Numbered from the stretch's first letter, positions 10,033 to 49,349 are shown. The stretch: 64,000 bases of DNA from Chlorobiota bacterium (GCA_039810585.1 JBDHXF010000003.1:93946-157945), one strand, 5' to 3'. Numbers and translations: made by a program. Notes: generated by a model not told the origin, from the sequence alone.

Positions 10033-11091
10033 TTAGTGTTTCTGTGGTGTTTTTGACGAACCGGACTTCATGTTCGAATCACGAAGCATGCGAACTGTGC
10101 CGTCTGCACATCCCAGAATGATGGTCTTGCCATCGCTTGTCACGTCTACACCCCAAATCTCGGAATCGATTTTTTGAGAGTAGAGGAGTTCTCCGGTGAC
10201 AATGTTCCACATCTTTACGGTCTTATCAAGGCTTACGCTAATCAACGTGGTATTGTCTTCAGCAAAGGTAAAATCCTGGATCAAATCTTCGTGCGCGTTG
10301 ATCGTGCGAACCAATTCGCCACTATACATTTTCCACACCTTGATCACGCCATCTTTATCACAGGAAACTAGATAGTTGTCGTCGAATGAGAAGAGGCAAT
10401 TCAATACCGGAGCTTGGTGACCCGGACCACTGAGTTGGATAACAGGATCCTTCTTGCCGATTTCGGTTGACCAAATATTGATCTGATAGTCATCGCCACA
10501 AGAAGCGATGTATTTGCCGTCATAGGAATAGGCTACGCCGTTTACAGCAGCGGTGTGTCCGCGGAGTGTCTTCACTTCGCCCAATGTACACTTATCGTCA
10601 TCATGGCAAATCAGGTGAGTATCCCACAACTTGACCGTTTTGTCAAACGATCCGCTACAGATATAGGCGCCGGTGTCCGTCTGGCTGTAGTACACGCTGC
10701 TTACTTCGGCATTGTGACCGCGAAGAACGGCAACTTGCTTTCCACTTTCAACATCCCACACGCGAACTGTTCCATCAGAACTCGCGCTGGCCAGAGTTTT
10801 GTCATCGCCCGAAAACGATACGTTGTTCACTTGGCCAAGATGGCCGCGAAGTGTATGCAGTTCTTTGCCGTCGGGTAAACTCCAAATCTTGATTGTCTCA
10901 TCAACACTGCAAGTGGCAAAACGTGTGTTGGCCTGATTGACGAAAACGCCCAAGACTTCATCGTCATGATGGCCAATTGTCGTCATGGTATAGGTGCGCT
11001 GCTGTGCAAATCCCTGCATGCTCACGAGTGCTCCCAGCACACAACACAAGGCACATCGCAGAATCAATAATCGCGGCATAGTGTACTCCAA
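10033..11091 (-). CDS. Periplasmic WD40 beta-propeller protein
   Basis: 352 aa with a signal peptide. Seven GH..WD-type repeats are visible (IKIWSL..LRGH, VRVWDV..LRGH, and so on). Confidence 0.8.
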   Translation of the reverse strand: MEYTMPRLLILRCALCCVLGALVSMQGFAQQRTYTMTTIGHHDDEVLGVFVNQANTRFATCSVDETIKIWSLPDGKELHTLRGHLGQVNNVSFSGDDKTLASASSDGTVRVWDVESGKQVAVLRGHNAEVSSVYYSQTDTGAYICSGSFDKTVKLWDTHLICHDDDKCTLGEVKTLRGHTAAVNGVAYSYDGKYIASCGDDYQINIWSTEIGKKDPVIQLSGPGHQAPVLNCLFSFDDNYLVSCDKDGVIKVWKMYSGELVRTINAHEDLIQDFTFAEDNTTLISVSLDKTVKMWNIVTGELLYSQKIDSEIWGVDVTSDGKTIILGCADGTVRMLRDSNMKSGSSKTPQKH

Positions 11092-14350: not shown

Positions 14351-16057
14351 TTATTCACCAATCACAACAATTGCCGATTGTTGAATCGTATCCTGGGTTT
14401 GTACATCGACCGCCTCTACATGCACAATGTACACTCCAAGTGGAAGATCAAAGCCTGCATCGTCTCTACCATCCCACAAATACCCGAGGTCTGAACCACT
14501 GTACTCACCGTGATAAAACTCTCGTACCATGCGACCGGAAGCATCGAACAGGCGTAAAAGAACTCTGCACTGGTGTGCCGGCAAATGTATGCTGATGTAG
14601 GTGCTCTGTTTTGCGCCCAAAGGACTACGCGCCGAAAAGGGATTAGGGTTGCATTGAATATCAGCAACGGAGCTGATGGCGCGTGCCACACTGTTTATTG
14701 CACCAGGCGTACATCCGCTTGAATCCACGCAGGTTGTCCACGACCATGGTACGGCGGAGGGAAGATCGGGTGACACCTTCTCCAAGGAACGACCCTTCGT
14801 AGCCGTTGCCGCCGAGCTGTGCCATGACGAGCTATATCGCACCGAATCCAAAATCCTTCCGTACGGATCGCGCAGACTCACCAGCTCATCAGTCGATCGA
14901 AGAGTCCACGAATTTTGATCCTTGCAGACAATGATGCGATTGCGATCTAATCCCTGTTCAAATCGTAGAGTTGTGTCTTTGCATAACACGAGATAGTCGC
15001 GTGCGGAAATGCTGCAGCTGTCGGGTACAAGCAAGTATCCACCTGAACCATCGTGCAGCTGCAACTCCGACAAATCGAGCGGCATGTCGGTTGCGTTGTA
15101 CAGTTCAACAAACTCTGACTGTGTCGAAGTTGGGTCGTAGAGGATTTCGTTGATTCGTATCGCTTGTGCAACAGGGGAAATACGAAGGGACAACGCCAGA
15201 GTGTCGTTTCGCTGTCGCTCATCGCCAGTTGCGTGACAGATAAACAGACACTGAATGAGTGTTTGCTGCGCCTTGGCTCGAATGCTGTCGAGCGACAGAT
15301 GGATCGTGTCGTGGCTCGTTATGCCAAGCTTCTCGATTATACCTCCGAACCATTCTACATCCTGCGAACGAAATGACCACGATGTTCCATCTGTTTCACT
15401 ACGACTGAGATTCGATACCACGAGCTCGAGCGATTGGGCAAGGGTGTCGATAAACCAGCTCTCCGCCGCAACGTCTCGTCCGGTTAGCGAGACAGAATTT
15501 AACTCTCCGCACGATGCACCTTCGGCGTAGGTACAGGCGCGTAGATTATCGCCGTTTTCTGCACCCAACCAAGCGTTGACTCGCTCTACACTGTATCCGG
15601 AGGGAACTCCTTTGTTTGTATAGCGCAGTGAGTCTACCACCGTTGAATCTGATAATCGCAAGGCGAGATATTCGCCGCTGTTGTTGAGCGACGGAAGAGA
15701 CACCTTGCAAAGCGATGACGATGGCAGGTGGGGTCGGATCTGAACCAACGCCGCCGTATCCTTACAGAGCACAACATAGTGGCCAGCTGCCACACTGTAT
15801 TGCTGCAAGGCAACTCGACTTCCTGAGTCGTGGAAATACAGCCCACTCAAATTGTGAGCAGCGCTGTCCGTATTCACGAGCTCCACCCATTCGGGCTCCG
15901 GAGTTTTGGGAGCAAACATGATTTCATTAATGACAAACTGCGCATGCATTGGCGCTGTTGGTGTGCCTAGTGTTATCGCCGCCATGCACAGAGTTGGAAG
16001 CCAGCGCACATGCGTGCAACGCATGAAGCGTTGATAAAAAAATCTCAAGCAGAACAT
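14351..16057 (-). CDS. Secreted protein with two lamin-tail domains (LTD) and a T9SS C-terminal sorting domain
   Basis: LTD motifs: FVINEIMFAPKTPEPEWVELVN and IRINEILYDPTSTQSEFVELYN. The C-terminus reads NPNPFSARS...LRLFDASGRMV...WDGRDDAG..LPLGVYIVHVEA, which is Por_Secre_tail-like. Confidence 0.6.
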   Translation of the reverse strand: MFCLRFFYQRFMRCTHVRWLPTLCMAAITLGTPTAPMHAQFVINEIMFAPKTPEPEWVELVNTDSAAHNLSGLYFHDSGSRVALQQYSVAAGHYVVLCKDTAALVQIRPHLPSSSLCKVSLPSLNNSGEYLALRLSDSTVVDSLRYTNKGVPSGYSVERVNAWLGAENGDNLRACTYAEGASCGELNSVSLTGRDVAAESWFIDTLAQSLELVVSNLSRSETDGTSWSFRSQDVEWFGGIIEKLGITSHDTIHLSLDSIRAKAQQTLIQCLFICHATGDERQRNDTLALSLRISPVAQAIRINEILYDPTSTQSEFVELYNATDMPLDLSELQLHDGSGGYLLVPDSCSISARDYLVLCKDTTLRFEQGLDRNRIIVCKDQNSWTLRSTDELVSLRDPYGRILDSVRYSSSWHSSAATATKGRSLEKVSPDLPSAVPWSWTTCVDSSGCTPGAINSVARAISSVADIQCNPNPFSARSPLGAKQSTYISIHLPAHQCRVLLRLFDASGRMVREFYHGEYSGSDLGYLWDGRDDAGFDLPLGVYIVHVEAVDVQTQDTIQQSAIVVIGE

Positions 16058-16624: not shown

Positions 16625-18763
<2,139 letters not shown>

Positions 18764-18775
18764 ATCGACGACCTG

Positions 18776-18823
18776 TTCATCGTCAGGAGTTGAATTATTC
18801 GTGCGCGGCTTCGCCGCACAAGC
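18776..18823 (+). repeat. Dispersed about 45-nt motif, copy A (TCGTCAGGAG-N11-TTATTCGTGCG plus GC hairpin), immediately after ligA
   Basis: Compared by eye with copies at 41196, 46311 and 897. Confidence 0.55.
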
Positions 18824-18859
18824 TCAGGCGGTAGACTAACTCAGTGTTGCGAGCCTTCC

Positions 18860-21800
18860 TTAGAAGTTACGGTTCATCTCGCGCCAACGACCGGTTGTGC
18901 CATCGTAAATGAGGGTGATCATGTCGTCGGCATTCATCACAGCATCGGCATTCTTCGACAAGATCATTTTGTTCGCCGCTGTACCGGTGGCTGATTGATG
19001 CTTGATGGTAATGGCGTTGGAACCAACATTGATGAGGGTGATTTGACGACCATCAGTTCCCGATGCAATACTGTTGATGTTGATCGTGGTGGACGCGCTC
19101 ACGCGGAAAACAGAGTTGCCACTCAGTGTCAACGACAAATCTGTTTGATCGGCGCCATAGGCACCGGGACTATTCACACCATAGGTGATAGTTGCACCTG
19201 CTGAAGCCCAGGATAGGGTGCCGCTTCCGTTTGTTGAGAGCATTTGTCCGCTACTTCCGTCTGCTGTCGGCAATGTGTACGTCACATTTCCGGTATTAGC
19301 ACCAGCCTTGAACGAGGTAGTAAAGGTGCGAGCCGGATTGTAAAACTGAAGCTGTCCTGCCGTACCCGATGCGCTGGTATCGATGCTCAGATTACCACCA
19401 CTGAGACGTTCGGAGCCATTCACATGCAGAGTTGCGGTTGGAGTCGAGGTTCCAATGCCAACATTGCCACTTGGGATAAGTAATGCGTAGTTGTTGGTTC
19501 CGCCACTTGCACTAATGTATGCACCGACGTTGGTCGAGCTTGTTCCGGTATGCGTATTCGTCAAGTACAAGCCATAGGTGCTTTGTGTCGTGGTGGAGTT
19601 GGCACCGGACAGGCTGATGTTCAACATCTTCTGTCCGTTCGAAGCGGCTGCTGTCGAAGTCGAACTAAGAGTGAGCGCCGAGTTCGACGACAACGAATTC
19701 CATTGCCAAGTTTGAGCGTAGTCAACGTTGTTGATGCTATTGGTAGCCGTTGCCGCCGTCAAGGCTGAGATAGCGGTTGACGTAGAAGCACTCTGCCACG
19801 ACATATTTCCACTGGCGTCCGATTGCAAGAATTGCCCTGCCGATGGAGCAGAGGTAGGCCAGGTGTAGCTAAGGTTTGCACCCTGCGCCCCGGCTTTGAT
19901 CGACGTTGTAAAGGTTCGTGCCGGGTTATAAAACAAGAGTGAGCCTGCGGTTCCTGAAGCACTAGTATCGATCGTAAGATTGCCGCCACTGAAGCGAGAT
20001 GCGCCGTTAACATGCAGCACTGAAGTTGGTGTCGTTGTTCCTATCCCAACATTACCACTGGGAATTACCAACGCGTAATTGTTGGTTCCACCACTTGCAG
20101 ACAGGTATGCTGCAATGTTTGTAGACGAGGTGCCTGTATGAGTGTTCGTACTATACAAACCGTACGTGGTTTGGGTAGTTGTGGCGTTTGCACCACTGAG
20201 CGATAACGACAATAATTTCTGTGTGTTTGAAGCAGCGGCCGTTGAGGTCGACGACAATGCCAGAGCTGTGTTTGAGCTCAAACTGTTCCATTGCCATGTT
20301 TGAGCGTAGTCAGCATTGTTGATGCTATTTGTTGCTGCGGCTGCTGTTAGACCCGAAATGGGAACCGTTGTTGCTGTTGTCGATGGTGTCACCCAGCTCA
20401 ACGTTGATGAGCCGTTGGTACTCAGTACCTGACCATTCGATCCGTCGGCTGCCGGTAACGTATAGGTAACGTCTACCGATTGTGACTGTGCCTTGAAGCC
20501 TGTGTAGTTGGAGCCACCTGCACTTGGTTCAAAGAAGCGAAGTTCGGATGCTGTGCCGCTATTGCTAAGCAGAACATTCGTGTTGAACGATTTGGTTCCG
20601 TTAATCGTCTGAGCGCCTTCGGTCATCACGAAGCTGGCTGTTGTACCGGCATCAGGAATAGTGTAGGCCCGATTGGCTGCAAGATTTGCCAAGCTAATCG
20701 TTGCTGTTTTAGATGTTGCTTGTCCGTCGTTCAACACCACAGAAGCTGCATTAGAGTTTGATCCGAGTGTAAGCGCACCGGCATTGGTTTGTGCATTGGT
20801 GTTTTCAACCCAAGCCGAGCCGTTCCAGCGAAGGGTGGAGTTCGTTGTTGTGCCGGAAGCGACACTTGCGCCGCCGGTGGCATAGTTCGTCCATGCGCCA
20901 CTTTGATAGAACTCAAATTTTCCGGTGGAGGAGTTATAGCGAATCATACCGTTGACGGGCGACACCGGCTGTTGTCCGGTTGTACCAATCGGAATCGTCA
21001 GCGAAGCATTACCTGGAACGATGGGGTCTGATGCAAGTCCAAAGGTCGGATTGCCTGCTGTACCATCGCCATTCGTGACACTGATCTGATTTGCCGTTCC
21101 CGTCATCGTACGCGCGGTCATGGCTGCCGTTCCATTGCCCGAAGGGAAGCCGGTCATCGTTGCCACACCGGTACCACCGTTCGCCACCGGCAGAATGCCG
21201 CTGACATCGTTAGCAGACGAAAGCGATACTGTTCCTGATGACAACAGACCCGAGGCGTTGTTCTTTACGACGCCGGCAGTTGAGAACGGACTAATCGTTG
21301 GTGCTGAGCCAAAGGTCTTGGAACCGTTGATCGTCTGTGTCCCTTCGGTCATCACAAAGCTGGCTGTCGTACCGGCATCGGGAATAGTGTAGGCCCGATT
21401 GGCTGCAAGATTTGCCAAGCTAATCGTTGCTGTTTTAGATGTTGCTTGTCCGTCGTTCAACACCACAGAAGCTGCATTAGAGTTTGATCCGAGTGTAAGC
21501 GCACCGGCATTGGTTTGTGCATTGGTGTTTTCAACCCAAGCCGTGCCATTCCAGCGGAGAGTTGAATTCGTTACTGTTCCGGCTGCGATGCTTGCGCCAC
21601 CGGTGGCGTAGGTAACCCACGAGCCATTCTGATAAAATTCGAAGCGATTGGATGTGCTGTTATAGCGCATCATGCCGTTCACAGGTGAACCCGGTTGTTG
21701 ACCGGATGTACCGATGGGGATCGTCAGCGACGCGTTGCCTGGAATTATAGGATCGCTAGCCAGGGCAAAGGTCGGATTGCCTGCTGTACCATCGCCATTG

Positions 21801-23014
21801 GTGACACTGATTTGATTTGCAGTTCCCGTCATTGTACGCGCCGTCATCGCTGCGGTGCCATTTCCGGAAGGGAAACCGGTTATGGTTGCGACACCGGTAC
21901 CGCCATTAGCTACCGGCAGAATGCCGCTGACGTCGTTGGTTGACGCCAGTGACACAGTTCCGGATGATAACAGACCGGACGCATTGTTCTTCACAACGCC
22001 GGCTGTTGAAAATGGACTGACGGTGGGAGCAGAACCAAAGGTTTTCGAACCATTAATTGTCTGCGCACCTTCTGTCATTACAAAATTTGCGTTCGCTCCG
22101 GCTTCAGGAATGGTGTACACCCGATTGGCTCCAAGCGTGGAAAGACCAATCGTTGCTGTCTTTGACGTAGCCTGACCGTCGTTTAAAACGAGCGAAGCCG
22201 CATTGGAATTCGAACCAACTGTTACAGTTCCTGCACTGGTTTGCACGTTTGTGTTTTCCACCCACGCCGAACCACTCCATCGAAGAGTGGAGTTATTTGT
22301 TGTTCCGCTCGATACGGAGCCATTGTTCTGCCAGGATAAGTTGCCGGAGGCATCACTCACAAGGTACTGTCCTGCTGCCGGAGCCGTAGTTGGCCAGGTG
22401 TACGTGAGATTTTGACTCTGTGCACCGGCGCGAAGCGCCGTGAAGAACGATCCTGCGGGGTTGGAGAAGCGCAATTGACCTGCGGTACCGGAAGAGGCGG
22501 TATCCAGGAAGATATTTCCTCCACTGATGTGGAGTAGTTGGGATGGAGCGCTCTGTCCGATGCCAATGTTCCCACCGGAGAGTATGCGAAGGCGCTCCGT
22601 GTTGTTGGTAAAGAAGCGGAGGTCGTGAGCGTCGGTCGTTCCTATAAACATACCGGCTGTCGTTCCCGCGTTTCCGTGGAGAGACCACGCAGTGGTCGAG
22701 ATGAGGGTATCCGGATTGATCCAAGCCATACCGGAGCCGGACATTTGCAGCAACTCAGAAGCAGCGCCCGGACTCAGTAAGCCAATTTGGCCGGTAAGTC
22801 CATTCACATGCATGAGCTGCGGTGTGGCAACTCCAAGTGTGGATGGTAGAATTAGTCGGTAAGAACCACTTGCAGAGGATGGAAGTGATATCCACGATGA
22901 ACCGCCGGCGGCACTTCCCAGGCGTAGGGAATCAGCGCCTAACCCTTGAGCATTGCTCAGAGTTGTGCCACATAGCAGCATCAAACATATTATTCCCAGA
23001 GAACATTTATTCAT
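18860..23014 (-). CDS. Giant secreted S/T/G/N-rich repeat protein with phage-tail-fibre-like beta-helical repeats (1,384 aa)
   Basis: A signal peptide is present. An N-terminal roughly 230-aa domain is shared with the adjacent gene (WSLHGNAGTT..FIGTTD..RFFTNNTERLRI). The motif LRFxNPA..F.T...AG....N..YT.P.....GQ.L.....G..SW recurs. It has no T9SS sorting domain. Confidence 0.6.
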   Translation of the reverse strand: MNKCSLGIICLMLLCGTTLSNAQGLGADSLRLGSAAGGSSWISLPSSASGSYRLILPSTLGVATPQLMHVNGLTGQIGLLSPGAASELLQMSGSGMAWINPDTLISTTAWSLHGNAGTTAGMFIGTTDAHDLRFFTNNTERLRILSGGNIGIGQSAPSQLLHISGGNIFLDTASSGTAGQLRFSNPAGSFFTALRAGAQSQNLTYTWPTTAPAAGQYLVSDASGNLSWQNNGSVSSGTTNNSTLRWSGSAWVENTNVQTSAGTVTVGSNSNAASLVLNDGQATSKTATIGLSTLGANRVYTIPEAGANANFVMTEGAQTINGSKTFGSAPTVSPFSTAGVVKNNASGLLSSGTVSLASTNDVSGILPVANGGTGVATITGFPSGNGTAAMTARTMTGTANQISVTNGDGTAGNPTFALASDPIIPGNASLTIPIGTSGQQPGSPVNGMMRYNSTSNRFEFYQNGSWVTYATGGASIAAGTVTNSTLRWNGTAWVENTNAQTNAGALTLGSNSNAASVVLNDGQATSKTATISLANLAANRAYTIPDAGTTASFVMTEGTQTINGSKTFGSAPTISPFSTAGVVKNNASGLLSSGTVSLSSANDVSGILPVANGGTGVATMTGFPSGNGTAAMTARTMTGTANQISVTNGDGTAGNPTFGLASDPIVPGNASLTIPIGTTGQQPVSPVNGMIRYNSSTGKFEFYQSGAWTNYATGGASVASGTTTNSTLRWNGSAWVENTNAQTNAGALTLGSNSNAASVVLNDGQATSKTATISLANLAANRAYTIPDAGTTASFVMTEGAQTINGTKSFNTNVLLSNSGTASELRFFEPSAGGSNYTGFKAQSQSVDVTYTLPAADGSNGQVLSTNGSSTLSWVTPSTTATTVPISGLTAAAATNSINNADYAQTWQWNSLSSNTALALSSTSTAAASNTQKLLSLSLSGANATTTQTTYGLYSTNTHTGTSSTNIAAYLSASGGTNNYALVIPSGNVGIGTTTPTSVLHVNGASRFSGGNLTIDTSASGTAGSLLFYNPARTFTTSIKAGAQGANLSYTWPTSAPSAGQFLQSDASGNMSWQSASTSTAISALTAATATNSINNVDYAQTWQWNSLSSNSALTLSSTSTAAASNGQKMLNISLSGANSTTTQSTYGLYLTNTHTGTSSTNVGAYISASGGTNNYALLIPSGNVGIGTSTPTATLHVNGSERLSGGNLSIDTSASGTAGQLQFYNPARTFTTSFKAGANTGNVTYTLPTADGSSGQMLSTNGSGTLSWASAGATITYGVNSPGAYGADQTDLSLTLSGNSVFRVSASTTININSIASGTDGRQITLINVGSNAITIKHQSATGTAANKMILSKNADAVMNADDMITLIYDGTTGRWREMNRNF
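19240..20400. repeat. In-frame tandem DNA repeat, period about 579 bp, 2 copies
   Basis: The protein repeat IS(G/A)LTAA(A/T)ATNSINN.DYAQTWQWNSLSSN...LHVNG...YNPARTFTTS.KAGA is seen twice. Confidence 0.7.
20600..22320. repeat. In-frame tandem DNA repeat, period 726 bp, about 2.3 copies; copies 2 and 3 are nearly identical
   Basis: ORF-track fragments 20673..20885 and 21399..21611 translate almost identically, as do 21120.. and 21855... The protein repeat runs NSTLRW.G.AWVENTN...FYQ.G.W..YATGGAS. Confidence 0.8.
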
Positions 23015-23316
23015 GTTCGTTGAGATACTCCCATTTTGTACGACATCCTATCGAAAACGGTGTTCGTCCATGGAGGTCTGCAAAGACCTTGCCAGAACAA
23101 AAGGGCACCATTTGTCCGGAGAACAAATGATACCTCGTGGTTTTCGGCTGTTTGTAGCGAAAATTGAGGAGCCTTGGGTTGTTTTTAAGAGAGAAGAGTA
23201 AGGAGGCGTTTTTAGCGTAAAATCGACGTGCGCATGCACGTAAAAAACCTGGAGAGTCACAAGCCTGAGGTAGATGTGTGTTTCCCATCGACTGAAAATA
23301 TTCTGATCACGGTTCT

Positions 23317-26300
23317 TTATTGAATGCGGGTGTACTTCAACATCGAGAGCTTTTTCACAACAGTGGCGGTTCCACTGGATGTACTTTGGGCCCATTGAAG
23401 TTTGATGTTGCCTGCATTGGCACCAACGGAGATCACTCCGCGAATGTTGACAGAGGTAACTCCATTGGTAATGGTAATGGCGCTCGTAGCAGTGCCACTG
23501 GTTCGGAGCCACTCGTGTACGTGACTCGTATTCCCCGAATTAAGATTTGAGCACATATTCAGCGCCATAGTAGAGCCGGTGGGAATGGAAAACGCACACT
23601 TGATTCCACCGGTCGAGCCTGTTAGATCGAGAAGAACATCGACAAACCATTGTTCACCGTTGTTAACCGGGAATTGGAGATCATCGTCGTCCTGCAAGGA
23701 GGTTGACGAACTGAGCGACTCATCCGCAGCTTTTACTTTAAACTGGTCTTTGCCAATGTTAGTCCAGGTCATCGTGCCGGAACCGTTAGTGGCCATGAAG
23801 TCGCCGTTATTTCCATCGGCCGCCGGAAGCGTGTAGTTGACGTCGGCACTCTGCGCTTGTGCACTCAGAGAGCTATAGTTAGATCCACTTGCACTTGGCT
23901 CGTAGAATCGAAGTTGACTTGCCGTACCACTGTTGCTGAGTGCTAGATTACCCTGAACGTCAAGCTTGGACGATAGCGTTGGCGATTGGGTGTTGATTCC
24001 GACCGCACCATCAGATTTAATCGTCATCCGTGGCAAGAAACCCGCGCCGCCTCCAACGGGAGTTGTTGAAAAGATAATGCGTCCCGGAACGTTGCCGGAG
24101 CTGGGGGTACTGTCCACTTCCGAGGCAATATCGGCGCACGACAGATAGCTTCCTCCAAAGTAGGCGCGCCAACGGTACTGTCCGATTTCATCGTTGATTT
24201 GTACATCCGAGTAGCCCGCACCGTAAGTGCCGCGAGACCGAATGAGTTCAAAATGTGGTCCGCCAATGGCAGTTTCCGTCACTCCCGACATCGTCGCGTA
24301 ACTCTCGTCTCCGCCTTCCATAAAGAGTCGATTGGGTAAGCCGGAATACGACGTGGGTAGCGAGCTTGCCGTGTACCCAATTCGCAGCGACCCGTCTGTT
24401 CCAAAACTACCCACTTCCGCATTGTTGACTCGAAAACGCAGAGCGTAGTTATCTGTTGTACCGAGGAAGGGAGCTGCAGCACCGCTATTACCACTCAGCA
24501 ACCAAGAAGTGGAACCCATTGTAGCCCAGCTCAATGTACCTGAGCCATTTGTGCTGAGAACCTGTCCGGAACTTCCGTCCGCACTTGGTAAGGTGTAGAC
24601 CGTACTTCCGGCCGCAGCAGCGGGCGCGAAACCAACAAACCCCGAAGTTGCACCGCTCAACCGAAATGTACCTTTGACATCCAGGGTGGCACCGGGGGAG
24701 TAGGTATTGATTCCAATGAGCGGCGTCGAGGTGTAGATGCCACTGCCATAGATGGTGTTGGCGATACTCATGTAATTGGATCCGGTCGTAGCAGGGCCGA
24801 TACATGTTGAGTCACCGATAAAAATGTTTTTACTACCACTCGTGTGCGACACGCCCGCGTTATGACCAAGGAGCACGTTTTTATCTCCGGATACCAGAAA
24901 ATATCCGGCCGAGGAACCGATGCCTGTGTTGTAATTGCCGGTATTGGCATTGAGCGCAACAATACCAACAGCCACATTGTCTTGTCCGCTGATATTCTGA
25001 TCTAAAGCCACAAATCCCACCGCAACGTTGCGCATACCCGTCGTGTTCTGGAACATCGCTTGATATCCAAGTGCAACGTTTGCAGACCCGGCGTTCGACA
25101 AAGCCGCTTGGTACCCCATAATAGTGGACTGATTACTTTGGTTGAGGTGAATGTACCCATTGGTCTTATTGATGGTCATACGTTCAGTATTCGATGTCTT
25201 GAACATCAGGTCCTGCGCATCGGTTGTCCCGAGAAAATTGGTGCCAGACGTTGTCCCTGCGTTGCCACTGAGTGACCACGATGTAGCACCATTGCCGACC
25301 CAGCTTAACGAGCCACTACCATTGGTGCTGAGTACTTGACCGTTGGATCCATCGGCTGCGGGCAGGGTGTAGCTAACGTTCGCCGTATTGGTACCAGCCT
25401 GCAACGATGTGTAGAAAGTCCTTGCCGGATTATTAAGCATAAGCTTTCCTGCCACGCCGGTAGAAGCTGAGTCGATAAGGACATTACCTGCTACGTGTAG
25501 ACGCTGTGTAGCAACCGGCACTCCAACACCAATTTTACCGGACGATACGGTTGTGCCGGAGCCGCTCACCGATGTACCGAAAATCAAATTGCCAATGCTG
25601 AGTTGATTGCTCCCTGTTGCGCTTGGCGCATCAATGTCATACCCGATTATAATGTTATTCGAGCCACTCGTTAAGGCATCGCCTGCTTTGTACCCCAGCA
25701 GAATATTGTTGGATCCAGTTGTCAATGCGTAACCTGCTTGGAAGCCAAGGAGTGTCGAGTTTGCGAAGGAAAAGGTAGACGTTCCTTGTCCCGCGCTCGT
25801 CCCGACCAGAGTGTTATTTGCCCCGGAGATATTGTAGTATCCCGCATTGTAACCCAGGAGGGTGTTGTTGTCGGCTGTCGCATTACGTCCGGCATAAGCA
25901 CCCACAAAGGTCGAATTTTGAACGTTGGCCGATCCACCCGTATTGGCACCCACGAATACGGAGTATCCCACAGTAGTTGAGGTCTTTCCGGCTCCGGCAC
26001 CAAGGATGGTATTGTAGCCACCGCCAGTGTTGATATCACGTCCGGCTTCATGTCCCGCATAGGTATTTACCGATTGCGAGCCATTGCTCTTGCCTGCACC
26101 CGATCCAAAGAAGCTGTTATATGCACCGCTACTAAGATTCAGTCCCGATTGATAGCCGAAGGTCGTATTGAACGAGCCGATATTGATGAGTCCTGAGGGT
26201 GAGTTGTACACTTTCAAAACCAGATCGGAAGAATCAAGGGTGCCGAGAATGGCGGAACTTCCGCCGAGATTATTGCCGGACAGTGACCACGCATTAGCCA

Positions 26301-27024
26301 CGGCGGCGGCATCTACCCAGCTCAGTACTCCGGCTGAGGACGTACTCAACACATTCCCATCGGACGGTGTAGATAGTGGCAGGGTGTAGTTTATCGTAGC
26401 ACTTTGATTGCCGGCTCGAAACGAGCTATAGAAAGTTCGAGAAGGATTGGAAAACCGAAGTTCAGCCGCGTTACCTGAACTGAGAGTGTCGAGGTACAAG
26501 TGACCACCGCTTAGATGGAGTAACGTGGACGGATTGTTCGTACCAATACCGACGAAGCCACCGGGCTGAATACGTAGTCGCTCTGTTGCATATGTCTTCA
26601 TGACAAGGGGCTGAGAGTCTTGCGTTCCCAAGAACGAAGTGCCCGGCACGGTACCGGCATTTCCTACCAAAGACCATGCTTGTTGCTGAACAATACTATC
26701 GGGTTGAATCCAGCTCAGCGCGCCGGACGACATGCGAAGGAGTTGCGAATCAGATCCGGGACTCAGAAGATTGAGCTGACCACTCGGTCCGTCAACATAC
26801 AGGAGCTGTCCACTGGACGAACCGAGGTTTGGAGGCAAGAGCATTCGATAGCTTTGCGTAGCTGCGGAAGGGAGAACGATCCACGACGACCCACCATTGG
26901 CGTTTCCAATTCGAATGGAGTCGACGCCAAATCCCTGTGCCCAGAGTAGCGTTGGTGCACAAAACACCAGAGCCAGCAATCCATGCTTGTAGTTGCTCAC
27001 CGTACGTCCTATGTAATATCCCAT
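23317..27024 (-). CDS. Giant secreted phage-tail-fibre-like beta-helix repeat protein (about 1,235 aa), paralogous to the adjacent gene
   Basis: The signal peptide is at the internal M (GLLALVFCAPTLLWAQG). It shares N- and C-terminal domains with 18860..23014. The centre holds GYNAG/GYQAG..NTTG.NN..VG head-repeat arrays, as in tail fibres and trimeric adhesins. Confidence 0.6.
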   Translation of the reverse strand: MGYYIGRTVSNYKHGLLALVFCAPTLLWAQGFGVDSIRIGNANGGSSWIVLPSAATQSYRMLLPPNLGSSSGQLLYVDGPSGQLNLLSPGSDSQLLRMSSGALSWIQPDSIVQQQAWSLVGNAGTVPGTSFLGTQDSQPLVMKTYATERLRIQPGGFVGIGTNNPSTLLHLSGGHLYLDTLSSGNAAELRFSNPSRTFYSSFRAGNQSATINYTLPLSTPSDGNVLSTSSAGVLSWVDAAAVANAWSLSGNNLGGSSAILGTLDSSDLVLKVYNSPSGLINIGSFNTTFGYQSGLNLSSGAYNSFFGSGAGKSNGSQSVNTYAGHEAGRDINTGGGYNTILGAGAGKTSTTVGYSVFVGANTGGSANVQNSTFVGAYAGRNATADNNTLLGYNAGYYNISGANNTLVGTSAGQGTSTFSFANSTLLGFQAGYALTTGSNNILLGYKAGDALTSGSNNIIIGYDIDAPSATGSNQLSIGNLIFGTSVSGSGTTVSSGKIGVGVPVATQRLHVAGNVLIDSASTGVAGKLMLNNPARTFYTSLQAGTNTANVSYTLPAADGSNGQVLSTNGSGSLSWVGNGATSWSLSGNAGTTSGTNFLGTTDAQDLMFKTSNTERMTINKTNGYIHLNQSNQSTIMGYQAALSNAGSANVALGYQAMFQNTTGMRNVAVGFVALDQNISGQDNVAVGIVALNANTGNYNTGIGSSAGYFLVSGDKNVLLGHNAGVSHTSGSKNIFIGDSTCIGPATTGSNYMSIANTIYGSGIYTSTPLIGINTYSPGATLDVKGTFRLSGATSGFVGFAPAAAAGSTVYTLPSADGSSGQVLSTNGSGTLSWATMGSTSWLLSGNSGAAAPFLGTTDNYALRFRVNNAEVGSFGTDGSLRIGYTASSLPTSYSGLPNRLFMEGGDESYATMSGVTETAIGGPHFELIRSRGTYGAGYSDVQINDEIGQYRWRAYFGGSYLSCADIASEVDSTPSSGNVPGRIIFSTTPVGGGAGFLPRMTIKSDGAVGINTQSPTLSSKLDVQGNLALSNSGTASQLRFYEPSASGSNYSSLSAQAQSADVNYTLPAADGNNGDFMATNGSGTMTWTNIGKDQFKVKAADESLSSSTSLQDDDDLQFPVNNGEQWFVDVLLDLTGSTGGIKCAFSIPTGSTMALNMCSNLNSGNTSHVHEWLRTSGTATSAITITNGVTSVNIRGVISVGANAGNIKLQWAQSTSSGTATVVKKLSMLKYTRIQ

Positions 27025-27237
27025 ACAGAACCAATGTACATGGCAGTCACCTTCGTGTTCGCCACAAACACGCACCCCTTCTTCTAGGGTGCTCAGTCTG
27101 CCCATGCATCACAAATAGTGCGCCAATTATTGGAGTGTAATGTCCACGATAAGCAATCATTCATCATCCTCTCGACCCACCGAGAAGAGGAAAAAAGGGA
27201 AGAGCGGTGGGTAGTACGGGACGTCCAGGAAGTCAGA

Positions 27238-30581: not shown

Positions 30582-30689
30582 ACGCAGTCACCTTCCTCGT
30601 TGCATGAATATTTGCTACGTTCACCAATAATTCCTGAGTACCAACACGGTGTTGACGTGTTACTCATTAGTGAACCGATTGTTCGTGCC

Positions 30690-33600
30690 ATGCCAGCATT
30701 TTTCCGTCTCTTCCTGTTTGCCTTCTTCGTATTGGGCCTTTGCGCTTCCGCACAACAGGCACGCGTGTCGTCGTCTAATGATGATCATGGCTGCACCATT
30801 GACCTTACAAACCTCAGTACGGCCAACGATGCCATCGAACAACCTCTTCGCGCACTCATCGCCCATCCCGAACGCACTGACTCGATTGAAGCAGCGATAG
30901 AACGACAGGTTTGTCGGCGCTTCTTCATCGTCGTCCCTTCCTCCGGCGCGCTCAGCGCTACGCTCCAAAACATACAAAGCGTTGAACGTACTCTGGGATC
31001 TGATGGCTCTGCTTTGCATCACACGATTGGTGTTGACATTCGCAGATTAGGAATCGTACGGGGAAATTCAGTAGCCGTTATCGTCCTCCATTGTTTTGAG
31101 AGTTCGACGCTACGGTCGTCAGTGCGGGTGCTGAATTCCTGCACCGTTAAGGTTCGATTCGGGGATTCGCTTGCGAGGGGGTCCGGTGGCCTGGTGCATC
31201 GCTTTCCGATGCAAGTCTTAAATAGCGAGTATCTGCACGGTGATAGCCGTGACGTGCGATTAGCCGCCATGTCAGCCGCACTTCGCCTCATAACGAGTGA
31301 TTCCACGCAACTTCCCATCGAAGTGAGCACGCACAAGGACGGCGTTGCTCGCATTCGAGGCGTCGATATCCTTTCCATTCACCCTTCGTGGCAAGGTCAA
31401 GCGTGTTCGCTGTTGCATTTGCGGTATAAGGGACAAGAGCAATGGCTCGCCTGCAGCGATAGTGTGCTTTTGCCGACAACGGATCTGTATTTCCGGGGTA
31501 GTCATGCTTCGGGAGATACCACGTGGTACAGTCCGTTTTCCAACAACTGCGTGTACTATCTTACGCTAGAAGCAGACCATTCGTCCAATCGCTACACTCT
31601 GCGAACATCAGGCGGAACGTCCACAATTCTCAACTCACTCGTTATCGACCGACATTGTGAGGAAGAACACGAGTACGTGCAAGGATATTTCCGCGGATCG
31701 GATGCCAACGATTTCTTCTTAACGGAAACCGCCGAAGGGGAGAAGTGGGTGTGGAGGATGGTGAATCGCTATACACCGTTTGAACATCGCCAAGTTTTTG
31801 TCACGAACGACGCCTTGAACGATTCCGTTCATGTACACATTGAGTACGAGTCGCTGAACGACCTGCCGACCGTGAATCCGGACAAAAGGGTAGTTCTTAC
31901 GCTGAACGGAGACGTTATACATGACGATACATTCGATGGTGCGACGGAAAAGCGACTCGATATCAATGTGCCACGAGAAGTGTTCCGCGGCGGATTGTGT
32001 GATCTTCGATGTGTGTCCATCGGCACCGATACGACTGCTCTAAACTACTCTGAATCGCAAGCCTTTGATTACTACTCTATACGCGCTCGCAGTGAAGCCT
32101 ATGCCATCAGCGGATCGCTGGAAGGCACTGTCGAAGCACCTCCTTCGTCAGCGCTTCAGGTACGATTGCTACGGTCTGAACGTTCAGTAGTTCTGGATAG
32201 TGTCACTCACCAATGGCAGATCGTCAGCGGTCAACCGGGTTTGAGTATGATGCTTCAGGTGCGAAATGGCAGTCGTTCCTGGTCGTCTTGCATTATAAAC
32301 GGGAATACTCTTCTTTCGAGCGCCCTTCGGGCTTGCTCCATATTTGTTTATCATCCTGCCACGGATTCTACCGAGTGGTGGACAGGCAGTAGCTCCGACC
32401 GCGACGGTGCTTTGATTCTCCAGCGTGTACATGAGGGTGACTATGTAGTGGTTCTGGCTAATGACGACCGAAGTTTAGCGCCACAGATCCAGTCAGCTTT
32501 AAGTGGAGTCGGAATTACCAACAGTGCTCAAAAAGTTGCTACCAATGTGTACTATGCCTATCGCCGCATTCAAGGTGGCGCACAGGCGGTGGAGCATTCC
32601 GATGCGACAGAGTTAAGCGATCAAGTGTTTGTGGACGATGCATCAGTCCACGCTTGGCAGGCTCTTGTTCCACTCGCAGCCGGAATGCAGCACCTGATGA
32701 TAACCTCAGAAGATAGTGTTGAGCTCTGCGGACTTCGCCGCATTTCGGATGTTGATTTGACGGATACAACGCTGTCGGCTGATTATATCGTCATCACGCA
32801 TCACACCTTCGAGTCGGCAGCTCGAGACTTAGCTACATTCCGAGCAGGCCAGGGACATCGAACACAAGTGGTGTTTGTTGATGATATCTACCGTCAGTTT
32901 GGCGACGGACAAAAGAGTCCGCACGCAATTCGAAATTTTCTCCGCTATGCCTATGACCATTGGTCGGCTCCGCGCGTTCATGACGTGCTGTTGTTTGGAG
33001 ATGCGAGCTGGGACAATCGATCCATTCGTAGCGGCGACACGATGACGGATTATGTTCCGAGCTACGGCAAGCCCGTGAGTGACGTCTGGTTCAGTTTTGT
33101 CGACGGATCCGATGAATTGAGCGATTTCAATGTTGGTCGTTTGCCGGTACAAAACCTCCGGCAAGCACAGGACTTGGTACGAAAAATCAAGCGGTATGAC
33201 TCTTTGCCTCCCGATTTGTGGTGGAAGAGTTTCCTCTTCGTGTCCGGAGGGCAGACCGAAGCAGAGAAGTTGGATTTTCTTCAGTACAATCAGTCGTTTG
33301 AAAACCAAATTTACTCTGACGATTATTTTTTCCGTTCCAATTCGGTGTGCGGTGATACCACCAATGCCGCCTCGTATTTCCAGGTGAACAACGCCGGCTA
33401 CTCGGTTTCTAATCACATCAATAAAGCGGTTAATGGGCAGGGAGTGGCGTGGATTAACTTTATTGGGCATGGAAGTCCGACACTCACTGATGTGAACGAC
33501 TGGACAGACAGCTCACTAGCCAACGTCGATCGACCATTTGTGCTCGCCACCTTGTCATGCCAAACGGCAGCCTTTGCCGAAGCAGAAGTGTCGTGTATCG

Positions 33601-36479
33601 ATGAGAATTTCCTTTTGGCAAAGGACAAGGGTGCCATCGCCGCGATTGGTGCAACCGGATATGGAATACCGGACGTGCAGTCTATTGTGATGACGAAATC
33701 TTTCTTCGAGCTTTCAACTTTTGGGTCGCGCAACTTGGGTGACATCCTCAGCAATTCAACTGCATTGATTGCAACTTTCAGCGATATCACCTCGCACGAT
33801 GTCTACCTACAGAGTTGCCTTCTTGGCGATCCACTGAGTCGTATTCCCTTCGATACAGTTGCTCATCCGGTTGTACTCGAGCGTAGCCTCCGTATTGAAG
33901 ATAGGAGTGGCAGCCAGTATTTGAGTGACGATCAAGATTCTGCGTTTGTTCACGTTGAGCTGTTTAATGCGGGAGTCCACGGAGATACAGCCACGGTCTT
34001 TTTCATTCATACCTTTCAGAACAAGACGGATACGCTTGTGCGGAGTTTTGATGATGTGTGTATGACAATGCCTACTGACGCGGCATTTTCCATTTTTGGA
34101 CAGAATGGCATTCATACACTTCGTATCGAGGTTCAAGCAGATCCGCGATGGAGTCCATCGTCACGGTTTGGATCGGTGTACACAACGTCGTTCAATGTCT
34201 TCTCTCCGCGCCCGTTGCCAATCGATCCCTTTCCGTATTGGAATGTAAGTGCCGAACATCCGCTGCTGCGCGTGATATCAACCACGAAAGAAGGAGATAG
34301 CGTTCGCTTCGAAGCACAGTTGCGACAAGACTCTGTAGTGCTAGATTCTGTCGGCTACGACAACAATTCGGCGTTGCTTGTCGATGAATGCTTCGTGCAG
34401 TGGCAGCCACCGCTTCACCTCCAAGAAGGGCAGCGATACACTTTCGCGATTCGGTCCCGAAGCGAATTGAGTGGTAAAGAGAGTGCTTGGTTGGAGATTC
34501 CATTCAACGCAGGAGCGGACTCAGACCGCATGTCGATACGCATCCGGAACACGGTACGTCTTGATTCCGCTGCATGGACAAAGTCAGATCGATGGCGCGT
34601 AGACACCACCGGTTCGGAGCCACAGTACGTTTTGCATGACGAGCTTCGCTACGAAATGAGATCCTCGGTAGGATATGGGTACTATGACAGCACCGGCCAT
34701 CTTATCATCCCGATTCAACCCACATTTAAGATTGCCCTGAACGGTGTTACCTTCGGTGATCGTGATGACGTGCGCGGCTTCAATGTCCGCCTGGTCAATA
34801 AACGCACAGGAATGGTAGAGGCAGTGCGAAACTTCGACTGCTTTGTGGACCGTGATTCGTGCGATACCTGTTTCAACGGCTCCGGTAGAACCTTGGTTCG
34901 TTTTCTGCGCGATTCCGTTCCACAGGATGATTACCTCTTCCTGGCTATTTGTGGAAATACCTACGGAGACGTGTTTGTAAACAGAGATCTTGATTCCTTG
35001 CATGAAGTGCTCAAGCGCTATGGATCAGTAGTTGCCGATTCCGTCGTTCCTCCACATTCGTATTTGATGATAGCGGCTGCCGACGATTCGACGCAGCTGG
35101 TTGAGCGCATTCGATTGGATACGCTCAGTCCTCATGCGGCGGAGGATACCGTGTTTGCCTCCGGATCCGTTGCACTACACCCGGATAGTGGTTGGGTGAC
35201 CAGTCCTGTGTATGGACCGGCAAGGCGCTGGACGCGGGCTCAGGTCGAGGGCGAATTATCAGACAGCGTAGCGGCTTTAGCAGTGACCGTCTTCGGTTTG
35301 CGCGACAATTTTTCCGAACCACGAGTTGTCATGTCTGACACTGTTGCGGAGATGGATTTGTCGTCCATCGATGCCACTCGGTATCCCTATATACAATTTG
35401 AGATCCACGTCGTACGGCGAAGCCTGCTCCGGGATCCGGCTTTCCAGGCAATTCGTGTAGATCTCGAACCACTGCCGGAATTAAGTGTTGTTCCGTCGTC
35501 CTACGTGCTAGATGCAGATAGTGTGTTGCGCGGTGACACGATTTCCATCGTAGCCGCGGCCAAGCGAATCTCTCCACGAGCGGTCGTGGACAGTGCCATA
35601 CTCGTCATGCAACGAAACCCTGTGAGCAATACAGGATTTAGCAGCGTAAAGAGTTGGGCGTTCACACAGCCGGGTGATACCGTGACTCTGAACGTGGGAG
35701 ACACAGTTAGCACCTTGCAATTCGGAGACTACACTCTCAACAGTTTTGTTGTCAACCCCGACTCACTTATCCCCGAACTGTATCGGTTCAACAATAGTGC
35801 GCTGCGATATCAAACGGTGATCAACGATACAGAGGCACCACGACTTGAGGTTCACATTGACAGTTTGCCCACGTACGACGGCATGACGGTTGCACGCCAA
35901 CCACTCATTCGATGCCTCATGCGTGACAATTCGCGGATGCCAATCGTGGATTCCTGGCACCTGAGCGGACTCGTGAACGACTCCGCGATCGAGCAGCAGC
36001 CGGCCTATCGTTTTGTGGGAAGTGCGGATATACAGAGTCTCGCGTTTGCTCCGCCGGAAACTCGAGCCTACGTGGAGTTTCGACCAACCTTGCATAACGG
36101 CACGAATACTCTTGAGCTGAATGCCGTTGACTACTTTGGGAACGAGACCGACAGTGTACTGCATCTTTATGTTGATAAAGATTTGTCGGTACAAAAGTCA
36201 AACGTGGTTCCCAATCCGATGAACGAATCGGCACGGATTTACTACACTCTGTACGGTCCATTTGAGCGACAACTCGTCACCTTGGAAATCTACGACGCCC
36301 GTGGTGAACGTGTGCGCAGCATGCTCATCAATGCTCGCTTGGGAACGAACGTAACGATTTTTAATGGCTGTGATGATGAAGGGCGCAAACTCCTGCAAGG
36401 CTCGTATTACTACCGCATTTTTGCATCGCAAAGTGGGTCGATTGGTTCGGAGAATGGCATGTTCATTATTCTTCGTTGA
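30690..36479 (+). CDS. Giant peptidase C25 family (gingipain/PorU-like) protein with a T9SS C-terminal domain (about 1,930 aa)
   Basis: The signal peptide is MPAFFRLFLFAFFVLGLCASAQQ. The C25 core is YIVITHHTFESAARDLATFRAGQG...VVFVDDIYRQFGDG..SPHAIRNFLRYAYDHW. A catalytic His (WINFIGHGSPT) and Cys (LATLSCQTAAF) are present. The C-terminus reads VVPNPMNESARIYYTL...LEIYDARGERV...GSYYYRI, which is CTD-like. Confidence 0.6.
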   Translation: MPAFFRLFLFAFFVLGLCASAQQARVSSSNDDHGCTIDLTNLSTANDAIEQPLRALIAHPERTDSIEAAIERQVCRRFFIVVPSSGALSATLQNIQSVERTLGSDGSALHHTIGVDIRRLGIVRGNSVAVIVLHCFESSTLRSSVRVLNSCTVKVRFGDSLARGSGGLVHRFPMQVLNSEYLHGDSRDVRLAAMSAALRLITSDSTQLPIEVSTHKDGVARIRGVDILSIHPSWQGQACSLLHLRYKGQEQWLACSDSVLLPTTDLYFRGSHASGDTTWYSPFSNNCVYYLTLEADHSSNRYTLRTSGGTSTILNSLVIDRHCEEEHEYVQGYFRGSDANDFFLTETAEGEKWVWRMVNRYTPFEHRQVFVTNDALNDSVHVHIEYESLNDLPTVNPDKRVVLTLNGDVIHDDTFDGATEKRLDINVPREVFRGGLCDLRCVSIGTDTTALNYSESQAFDYYSIRARSEAYAISGSLEGTVEAPPSSALQVRLLRSERSVVLDSVTHQWQIVSGQPGLSMMLQVRNGSRSWSSCIINGNTLLSSALRACSIFVYHPATDSTEWWTGSSSDRDGALILQRVHEGDYVVVLANDDRSLAPQIQSALSGVGITNSAQKVATNVYYAYRRIQGGAQAVEHSDATELSDQVFVDDASVHAWQALVPLAAGMQHLMITSEDSVELCGLRRISDVDLTDTTLSADYIVITHHTFESAARDLATFRAGQGHRTQVVFVDDIYRQFGDGQKSPHAIRNFLRYAYDHWSAPRVHDVLLFGDASWDNRSIRSGDTMTDYVPSYGKPVSDVWFSFVDGSDELSDFNVGRLPVQNLRQAQDLVRKIKRYDSLPPDLWWKSFLFVSGGQTEAEKLDFLQYNQSFENQIYSDDYFFRSNSVCGDTTNAASYFQVNNAGYSVSNHINKAVNGQGVAWINFIGHGSPTLTDVNDWTDSSLANVDRPFVLATLSCQTAAFAEAEVSCIDENFLLAKDKGAIAAIGATGYGIPDVQSIVMTKSFFELSTFGSRNLGDILSNSTALIATFSDITSHDVYLQSCLLGDPLSRIPFDTVAHPVVLERSLRIEDRSGSQYLSDDQDSAFVHVELFNAGVHGDTATVFFIHTFQNKTDTLVRSFDDVCMTMPTDAAFSIFGQNGIHTLRIEVQADPRWSPSSRFGSVYTTSFNVFSPRPLPIDPFPYWNVSAEHPLLRVISTTKEGDSVRFEAQLRQDSVVLDSVGYDNNSALLVDECFVQWQPPLHLQEGQRYTFAIRSRSELSGKESAWLEIPFNAGADSDRMSIRIRNTVRLDSAAWTKSDRWRVDTTGSEPQYVLHDELRYEMRSSVGYGYYDSTGHLIIPIQPTFKIALNGVTFGDRDDVRGFNVRLVNKRTGMVEAVRNFDCFVDRDSCDTCFNGSGRTLVRFLRDSVPQDDYLFLAICGNTYGDVFVNRDLDSLHEVLKRYGSVVADSVVPPHSYLMIAAADDSTQLVERIRLDTLSPHAAEDTVFASGSVALHPDSGWVTSPVYGPARRWTRAQVEGELSDSVAALAVTVFGLRDNFSEPRVVMSDTVAEMDLSSIDATRYPYIQFEIHVVRRSLLRDPAFQAIRVDLEPLPELSVVPSSYVLDADSVLRGDTISIVAAAKRISPRAVVDSAILVMQRNPVSNTGFSSVKSWAFTQPGDTVTLNVGDTVSTLQFGDYTLNSFVVNPDSLIPELYRFNNSALRYQTVINDTEAPRLEVHIDSLPTYDGMTVARQPLIRCLMRDNSRMPIVDSWHLSGLVNDSAIEQQPAYRFVGSADIQSLAFAPPETRAYVEFRPTLHNGTNTLELNAVDYFGNETDSVLHLYVDKDLSVQKSNVVPNPMNESARIYYTLYGPFERQLVTLEIYDARGERVRSMLINARLGTNVTIFNGCDDEGRKLLQGSYYYRIFASQSGSIGSENGMFIILR

Positions 36480-49144: not shown

Positions 49145-49349
49145 ATAACCTCCGTTTGTGATTGGGGGAAAAGTAGCGAAGAACACTTTAACAACAAATG
49201 TCAAGTGTCACTAGTTCGTGTCACGATTTGAATTATTTCGACAAAAGATGAAATAAACACTGGAATGTGTACGAGAAATCTGACAGTGCAGGCAGCGAAG
49301 CTGCGCGCGAATCATGAGTATCTGTTTTTAGGATCGTATGCTCTAAAGT

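Follow-up and report, generated by a model that had tools for sequence, protein, structure and literature searches.

Why would a bacterium carry proteins built like phage tail fibres among its housekeeping genes? This question is raised by a 64,000-nucleotide (64-kb) stretch of the genome of a Chlorobiota bacterium (GCA_039810585.1, JBDHXF010000003.1:93946-157945; "the window" hereafter means this whole stretch), in which two adjacent genes on the minus strand, referred to as gene 1 and gene 2, encode very large fibre-like proteins. An earlier note on this DNA had taken the two products for cell-surface fibres rather than for parts of a prophage, and the results presented here speak for that view. 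We consider it likely that both genes encode modular adhesins of the cell envelope, assembled from phage tail-fibre modules, probably trimeric, and similar in plan to the MAT fibres of Bdellovibrio bacteriovorus. The evidence consists of matches to the families BppL_N and Phage_depo_C and to PHROGs, the fold predicted for one of the two tips, the signal peptides predicted for both proteins, and the housekeeping context of the genes; from these we infer display at the cell surface.

A comparison of gene 1 with PDB sequences (phmmer) provided the link to the MAT fibres. The sole matches at E<0.01 were to 8OJN/8ONB/8ONC (E 5.6e-5) and 8OND (E 1.2e-3), which correspond to Bd3182 and Bd2133, respectively, two members of the B. 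bacteriovorus MAT superfamily (Caulton et al. 2024, PMC10769870). Both matches lie across a region containing a so-called capping loop, that to 8OJN spanning residues 125-180 of gene 1. MATs are trimeric fibres that have a signal peptide, a conserved beta-rich N-terminal domain of ~130 residues, a beta-helical shaft with capping loops of the consensus V-G-G/N-pi-x-x-P-x-x-x-L, and, at the C-terminus, an S74 chaperone or else a tip without S74 (novel sandwiches, TNF-like, C-type lectin); they are found on the surface of the predator, where they bind prey glycans (PMC10769870).

Architecture of the two fibre proteins

Gene 1 occupies an open reading frame (ORF) of 1,384 codons (18860..23014), and its product is 100% identical to public protein P0001, for which the start is called 11 codons downstream. 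The ORF of gene 2 (23317..27105, 1,262 aa) is open from position 27105. When gene 2 is aligned with gene 1 and its homologues, its start falls at ATG 27024 (M28; 1,235 aa) or at GTG 27000 (1,227 aa), the latter being the start used for public protein P0121. The database label of both proteins is "hypothetical protein", i.e. they are unannotated. The residues S, T, G, N and A together account for 61% of the gene 1 protein and 54% of the gene 2 protein. The two co-directional giant genes of 1,384 and about 1,235 residues that the earlier note had described, and the compositional bias that it had ascribed to them, were thus both recovered. The features of the locus are as follows; residue numbers of gene 2 refer to the 1,235-aa form.

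18860..23014, minus strand: gene 1, 1,384-aa fibre protein (ORF, translation, identical public protein)
22949..23014, minus strand: gene 1 predicted signal peptide, residues 1-22, MNKCSLGIICLMLLCGTTLSNA followed by QG (from sequence)
22685..22948, minus strand: gene 1 base domain, residues 23-110, putative anchor (alignments, profile search, AlphaFold2)
22322..22684, minus strand: gene 1 first shaft unit, residues 111-231, with capping loop IGIGQSAPSQLLHI and module copy 1 (Bd3182 match, motif scan)
20585..22318, minus strand: gene 1 tandem 242-aa repeats, residues 233-810, 2.4 copies (BppL_N, repeat search)
20390..20584, minus strand: gene 1 module copy 2, residues 811-875
19199..20377, minus strand: gene 1 tandem 196-aa repeats, residues 880-1272, each with capping loop VGIGT..PT..LHV and a module (copies 3 and 4)
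18863..19189, minus strand: gene 1 tip, residues 1276-1384 (109 aa), Phage_depo_C-type beta-sandwich
23104..23134, minus strand: terminator-like hairpin between gene 2 and gene 1, a 14-pair stem followed by a T-rich tail (consensus scan only)
23317..27024, minus strand: gene 2, 1,235-aa fibre protein (ORF extends upstream to 27105)
26938..27024, minus strand: gene 2 predicted signal peptide, ending HGLLALVFCAPTLLWA followed by QG (from sequence)
26674..26937, minus strand: gene 2 base domain, residues 30-117 (alignment)
26311..26673, minus strand: gene 2 first shaft unit, residues 118-238, with capping loop VGIGTNNPSTLLHL and module copy 1
25540..26187, minus strand: gene 2 repeat array 1, residues 280-495, ~17-residue NN.L.G(Y/F).AG units (PHROG tail-spike and virion-structural families)
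25297..25539, minus strand: gene 2 capping loop and module copy 2, residues 496-576
24730..25167, minus strand: gene 2 repeat array 2, residues 620-765 (PHROG matches, repeats)
24526..24729, minus strand: gene 2 capping loop IGINTYSPGATLDV and module copy 3, residues 766-833
23758..24525, minus strand: gene 2 last shaft unit, residues 834-1089, with capping loop VGINTQSPTLSSKLDV and module copy 4 at its end
23320..23757, minus strand: gene 2 tip, residues 1090-1235 (146 aa), TNF/C1q-like jelly-roll

Both proteins start with a hydrophobic leader that ends in A↓QG as read from the sequence, a junction that is present in all close homologues of the fibres. The leaders are predicted to be Sec signal peptides cleaved at this position; signal peptidase I substrates of Bacteroidota typically have Gln as their first mature residue (the "Q-rule").

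Directly behind the leader the two proteins are clearly related. The N-terminal 228 residues of gene 1 are 50% identical to those of gene 2 (E 1e-65), which bears out the shared region of about 230 residues reported previously, and this region consists of a base domain of ~90 residues plus the first shaft unit. A profile of the base domain, used to search 1.84 billion representative proteins, retrieved 247 proteins at E<=1e-3, in ~45 of which the domain occurs once, right behind the signal peptide. Names are attached to few of them, all hypothetical proteins of Kapabacteria, Ignavibacteria and unclassified Bacteroidota metagenome-assembled genomes (MAGs), and the domain has no family in the copies of Pfam-A and NCBIfam that were searched. 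The base domain therefore appears to be specific to the Kapabacteria/Ignavibacteria lineage. A 29-sequence alignment of it found nothing at E<=1e-5 in a database of 5.8 billion sequences, for which the short, low-information query is probably the reason. The profile also matches internal modules of the fibres, which makes it probable that the base domain is related to, and has diverged from, the repeated module described below. Predicted as a monomer with AlphaFold2, the base domain is a small beta-rich unit, with a pLDDT of 69-92 over mature residues 1-90.

The repeated module, of ~50 residues, reads L(R/Q)F.NPA..F.T..AG....N..YTLP...G..GQ.L.T.GSG.LSW. As noticed earlier, it recurs in both proteins; each contains four copies, which in gene 1 end at about residues 228, 874, 1073 and 1269 and in gene 2 are located at about residues 149-238, 496-576, 769-833 and 999-1089. 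The first shaft unit has the pattern W.L.GNAG...GTTD...TNN.ER.RI, followed by the loop (V/I)GIG(T/Q)..P...LH(V/I/L) and then by the module. The capping-loop motif was found three times in gene 1 and four times in gene 2, against ~0.002 occurrences expected in shuffled sequences. At the level of sequence, the shaft is homologous to those of Bd3182 and Bd2133.

Between these elements the shafts are filled by repeats that differ between the two genes. Gene 1 contains 2.4 copies of a 242-aa (726-bp) repeat, with 82-95% identity at the protein level and 67-91% at the DNA level. A TINGSKTF motif corresponding to the Pfam family BppL_N is found in every copy (three copies), and the motifs LPVANGGTG and NGM.RYN...FEFYQ.G.W are present in the two complete copies. 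Matches of gene 1 to phages are confined to this region; phage and viral-contig matches are limited to short modules, corresponding to ~10% of gene 1. It also contains two copies of a 196-aa (588-bp) repeat that are 72-83% identical. Both repeats were found by another repeat search, Tandem Repeats Finder having returned nothing since periods of 588 and 726 bp are above its limit. Gene 2 has two arrays of ~17-residue units instead, and these match phage tail-spike, tail-fibre and virion-structural families among the PHROGs with E-values of 1e-20 to 1e-24, in line with the likeness to phage fibres that had been suspected for these arrays. Together, these matches support a tail-fibre ancestry of the modules.

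The C-termini gave a result different from that anticipated in the earlier note, according to which the proteins share a C-terminal domain of about 110 residues. The last 110-150 residues of gene 1 and gene 2 are unrelated (best pairwise match 21 aa, E 0.013) and belong to different domain families; only the last module copy is common to both proteins near their C-termini. The gene 1 tip belongs to Pfam family PF25692, Phage_depo_C (E 1.3e-6; 29.2 bits, cutoff 25), the C-terminal beta-sandwich of phage depolymerases. The gene 2 tip has no domain-family match. Its AlphaFold2 model, a monomer prediction based on an alignment of 24 homologues, is all-beta (pLDDT 91.6, pTM 0.85) and matches the folds of TNF-like lectins, C1q/TNF proteins, cyanophage tail fibres and the tip of the MAT Bd2734. 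Among predicted viral structures the same model matches many C-termini of phage tail fibres (E 1.8e-14 to 1e-10, TM 0.76-0.84, 18-32% identity). Profile searches with both tips against PDB sequences yielded nothing significant.

A spacer of 303 bp separates gene 2 from gene 1. The terminator-like hairpin that it contains suggests that the two fibre genes may be transcribed separately, as distinct transcription units. A scan for sigma-70 promoters gave no excess over the shuffled expectation. A 154-aa ORF starting with GTG (23048..23512, minus strand), which extends across the 3' end of gene 2 into the spacer, is probably not a gene.

Comparison with MAT fibres and other known fibres

The family had been regarded in the earlier note as uncharacterised. 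This needs to be amended, as the MAT fibres of Bdellovibrio are a close characterised counterpart, the closest one found. Like MATs, the fibres described here, as read from their genes, have a conserved base domain directly behind the signal peptide, a shaft with capping loops that matches Bd3182 and Bd2133 in sequence, and a variable tip, TNF-like in gene 2 and a Phage_depo_C sandwich in gene 1, which is exchanged among paralogues; and as in MATs there are many mosaic paralogues per genome. No match to the S74 chaperone (Peptidase_S74, PF13884) was detected in either fibre, a feature shared with the non-S74 group of MATs, formed by Bd2133, Bd1334, Bd2439 and Bd2734 (PMC10769870). In every MAT feature that can be tested here the fibres thus agree with that superfamily, except for the N-terminal domain. 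This domain is ~90 residues long instead of ~130 and unrelated to its MAT counterpart. Other differences are that the host, placed by the names attached to the homologues, is of the Kapabacteria type (Bacteroidota-Chlorobiota group), without a known predatory habit, that the genes are arranged in tandem arrays, and that the 50-aa YTLP...GQ.L.T.GSG.LSW module is the dominant repeat. Putative MATs from other phyla, the FCB group among them, are already given in Supplementary Table S3 of the MAT study (PMC10769870). In the literature we found no paper on MAT-like fibres outside that on Bdellovibrio, and none linking Kapabacteria to predation. The design itself was described in 2024 for Bdellovibrio and said to extend to other phyla; what is new here is the base domain, apparently specific to its lineage.

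Three other groups of proteins share parts of this plan. The Bacteroidota "tail fiber domain-containing proteins" ending in S74 are likewise chromosomal, secreted and giant, and have repeats in common with the shaft of gene 2, with 29-38% identity across 25-79% of the query (more than 1,100 matches). They differ in having another N-terminal domain (QVGINT..P..SA.LDV.S..KG.LIPRMT) and a C-terminal S74 domain, both of which are absent here. Fibres of phages, such as lactococcal phage BppL, those of cyanophages A4 and A-1(L) (9k09/8ke9) and actinophage tips, have in common with gene 1 and gene 2 the BppL_N domain, the Phage_depo_C sandwich and the TNF-like tip, as well as the principle of a conserved base with a variable tip. 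Unlike phage fibres, the proteins described here have predicted signal peptides and no virion genes nearby, and the similarity is limited to short modules. Finally, TNF/C1q-like lectins and tips from bacteria (Photorhabdus 9ib6, the C-terminal domain of Chlamydia Pgp3, BclA) are only 4-15% identical to the gene 2 tip.

These comparisons suggest how the fibres might be made and used. The precursor would be exported by the Sec pathway and cut by signal peptidase I at the conserved A↓QG junction. The beta-rich N-terminal domain of ~90 residues would then hold the fibre on a common element of the envelope, a role proposed because the domain is placed directly after the signal peptide, is conserved in all paralogues and has analogues in MAT and phage fibres. 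The shaft would consist of beta-helix units in series, with a capping loop of the type V-G-I-G/N-T-x-x-P-x-x-x-L closing each of them and the 50-aa module after it, and three such chains would form a trimer. Scaling from the model of Bd3182 (~550 Å for 922 aa), an extrapolation, would give a fibre of very roughly 70-100 nm. At the far end, the C-terminal tip would bind the target, by its Phage_depo_C-type sandwich in the case of gene 1 and by its TNF/C1q-like jelly-roll in the case of gene 2. For the latter, analogy points to a glycan carried by another cell or surface as the likely ligand, because this kind of jelly-roll is used by phage receptor-binding proteins and bacterial lectins.

Relatives and evolution of the locus

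The closest homologues of the two proteins are 47-75% identical over the aligned segments and all belong to MAGs with the label Kapabacteria, Kapaibacterium, "Chlorobiota" or Bacteroidetes. In relatives from Kapabacteria and Ignavibacteria, fibre genes form tandem arrays of two to six members encoding proteins of 244 to ~3,000 aa, which have the common base domain and either type of tip. The gene 1-type tip is terminal in P0002, P0004 and P0007, and the gene 2-type tip is terminal in P0008, P0124, P0131 and P0139. In P0332, P0163-P0167, P0259, P0353 and P0375, the gene 1-type sandwich directly precedes a TNF-like tip of the gene 2 type. This internal position in other fibres indicates that the sandwich can also serve as a penultimate "neck".

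Several arrays illustrate the range of variation. One contig (L001) from a MAG of a related species keeps the order PorU-like gene, 447-aa ORF, aminotransferase gene and fibre gene, and a second contig of this MAG (L002) has four consecutive fibre genes encoding proteins of 1,921, 510, 244 and 1,812 aa. The 244-aa protein (L002 7462..8196) is a minimal member made up of a signal peptide, a short base domain and a TNF-like tip; together with the 510-aa member (L002 5852..7384) it would be a convenient target for expression. Another MAG (L003) contains at least five fibre genes in tandem. The 3.28-Mb Kapaibacterium contig L077 (GCA_046329015.1) has six, for proteins of 2,948, 782, 1,524, 353, 354 and 358 aa, five of which possess a TNF-like tip. 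This array (L077 1..17874 and 18415..23084) adjoins flaG-fliD-fliS-flagellin genes located on the opposite strand, and within it lies a gene (6581..7021) for a secreted protein of 146 aa to which no function is assigned. No phage genes were found in the arrays of the relatives.

The comparison of these arrays identifies the fibres as a multigene, mosaic and fast-changing family without a fixed neighbourhood. The locus evolves by duplication of shaft repeats and by swapping of tips between paralogues.

At the level of modules, relatives of gene 1 (L005-L031; 27-61% identity in the best segment) are mainly found in known or suspected predators, namely Micavibrio, Alphaproteobacteria MAGs, Pseudobdellovibrionaceae and Bdellovibrionales. 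This observation is based on few search patterns, so that an enrichment is not established.

Genomic setting, competing explanations and meaning

The fibre pair is flanked by ligA and a gene for a class-III aminotransferase, and every annotated ORF in the window has a housekeeping or envelope function: the products are ATP synthase subunits, a MerR regulator, an FtsX-type permease, a GAF protein, LigA, the class-III aminotransferase, ValRS, a thiolase, citrate synthase, YceG, LptF/G, ribosomal protein S1, CinA, GyrA, a thioredoxin-reductase-like protein and LptD. Neither phage genes, nor tRNAs, nor Rfam families were found in the 64 kb. The earlier statement that ligA and the aminotransferase gene flank the pair with no other phage gene in view consequently holds across the whole window.

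Further genes of the window bear on export. The organism has type IX secretion (the type IX secretion system is abbreviated T9SS), and three proteins of the window carry a tail resembling the T9SS C-terminal domain (CTD). One of them is a 568-aa protein (14351..16057, minus strand) with two stretches of the lamin-tail domain (LTD) and a C-terminal FlgD_ig/CTD-like tail, whose gene adjoins those for the small GAF protein and LigA and which is probably T9SS cargo. The 904-aa product of ORF 46490..49204 (minus strand) has a beta-propeller region and a CTD-like tail (…VYPLPA…LPNGMYTIML…). The third is a PorU-like protein of 1,959 aa (30600..36479, plus strand), located 3.5 kb away, with a Peptidase_C25 domain and its own CTD-like tail. 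It scores 209 and 197 bits with the PorU and "PorU2" models, respectively, which is well below their curated cutoffs of 420 and 450, and its length is nearly double that of the PorU model; the L001 contig likewise has it close to a fibre gene. Apart from these, a 352-aa protein (10033..11091, minus strand) consists almost entirely of eukaryote-like WD40 repeats (six stretches, E 5e-61).

Could the fibres belong to this secretion system, as T9SS cargo or S-layer-like proteins with an unrecognised sorting signal that is handled by the nearby PorU-like sortase? The proximity of the PorU-like gene, the gene order that it shares with the 447-aa ORF, the aminotransferase gene and a fibre gene in L001, and the presence of T9SS-type cargo in the organism would fit such an arrangement. 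The fibres themselves do not: neither has an NCBIfam or Pfam match to a T9SS CTD of type A or type B at E<=1, and their C-termini show no similarity to the CTD-like tails of the three other window proteins, in agreement with the earlier observation that the fibres lack a sorting domain that other cargo in the window does have. Moreover, the C-termini of the two fibres differ from each other, that of gene 2 has a TNF-like receptor-binding fold rather than an Ig-like CTD, so that removal of the PorU type would cost the fibre its tip, and in another genus the fibre array is located elsewhere, beside flagellar genes. We therefore regard this explanation as quite unlikely. An explanation by trimeric autotransporter adhesins of the YadA type is hardly credible, since no Pfam match to a YadA-type anchor, head or stalk was obtained for either protein, and the C-termini are a soluble beta-sandwich and a jelly-roll; the missing anchor refutes it in practice, even though the gene 2 repeats resemble those of YadA heads and some database sources name relatives "trimeric autotransporter adhesin".

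A very unlikely origin, in our judgment, is a prophage, tailocin or phage-tail-like particle whose baseplate is encoded elsewhere and of which the two proteins would be leftover or moonlighting fibres. The modules are homologous to those of phage fibres, and phage fibres, too, as a rule combine a conserved N-terminus with a C-terminus that varies. Against this origin stand the lack of phage or tail genes and of tRNAs in the 64 kb, the arrays of up to six fibre genes in relatives, again devoid of phage genes, the small part (~10%) of gene 1 covered by phage and viral-contig matches, and the predicted Sec signal peptides of both fibres. Virion fibres are assembled in the cytoplasm and normally have no Sec signal peptide. 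The earlier note had also raised the possibility of assembly chimeras, and a chimeric assembly of repeated sequence would be compatible with the long internal repeats and with the observation that contigs of related MAGs break inside such genes. However, the ORFs are uninterrupted over 1,384 and 1,262 codons, the repeats have diverged (67-91% in DNA), and the same order of signal peptide, base, shaft and tip is found in independent assemblies, including the 3.28-Mb contig, all of which makes a chimeric origin highly implausible.

The interpretation as MAT-like envelope fibres has weaknesses of its own, which have to be set against the evidence given above. None of the signals recognised for targeting to the outer membrane (T9SS CTD, autotransporter barrel, lipobox) is present in the fibres, and no conserved neighbour gene that could be a candidate for a partner or secretion factor was found, the neighbourhoods differing between genera. 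The AlphaFold2 model of the N-terminal region is only moderately confident and its shaft part is poor, while the modelled base domain has no fold match in the PDB. Comparison of the base domain with the MAT N-terminal domain by hhalign gave a probability of 0.2%, i.e. the two are unrelated, the reference profile having been made from ORFs of Bdellovibrionales MAGs and CPR (Candidate Phyla Radiation) proteins and not from the HD100 proteins themselves. Because the base domain has neither a relation to MATs nor a solved fold, its anchoring role is argued from position and conservation only; and surface display, trimerisation and binding are inferred rather than observed.

A broader interpretation would be that Kapabacteria and Ignavibacteria possess a cell-recognition fibre system of their own, made from phage parts and equipped with a novel base domain and export route, whose arrays of exchangeable TNF-like tips would be used for recognising other bacteria, and that it reflects an unrecognised predatory or epibiotic habit parallel to that of Bdellovibrio and Micavibrio. 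Module-level relatives in Micavibrio and Bdellovibrionales fit this interpretation, and the same modules are found also in ordinary phages; we consider it speculative and, as it stands, unlikely.

MAT-like envelope fibres in this lineage would nevertheless be informative in several respects. They raise the question of how proteins may cross the outer membrane without any known signal, and the small natural fibres of 244-360 aa are a defined set that can be expressed for finding both the ligands and the anchor. To our knowledge, MAT fibres are the sole studied case of a bacterium using phage-type surface fibres for recognising other cells. The same design, with a conserved base, a modular shaft, exchangeable tips and many paralogues, would now be found in a distant, uncultured lineage together with another base domain. 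That the base domains differ suggests either that cell surfaces have acquired phage fibre modules on more than one occasion, or that the anchor is as replaceable as the tip.

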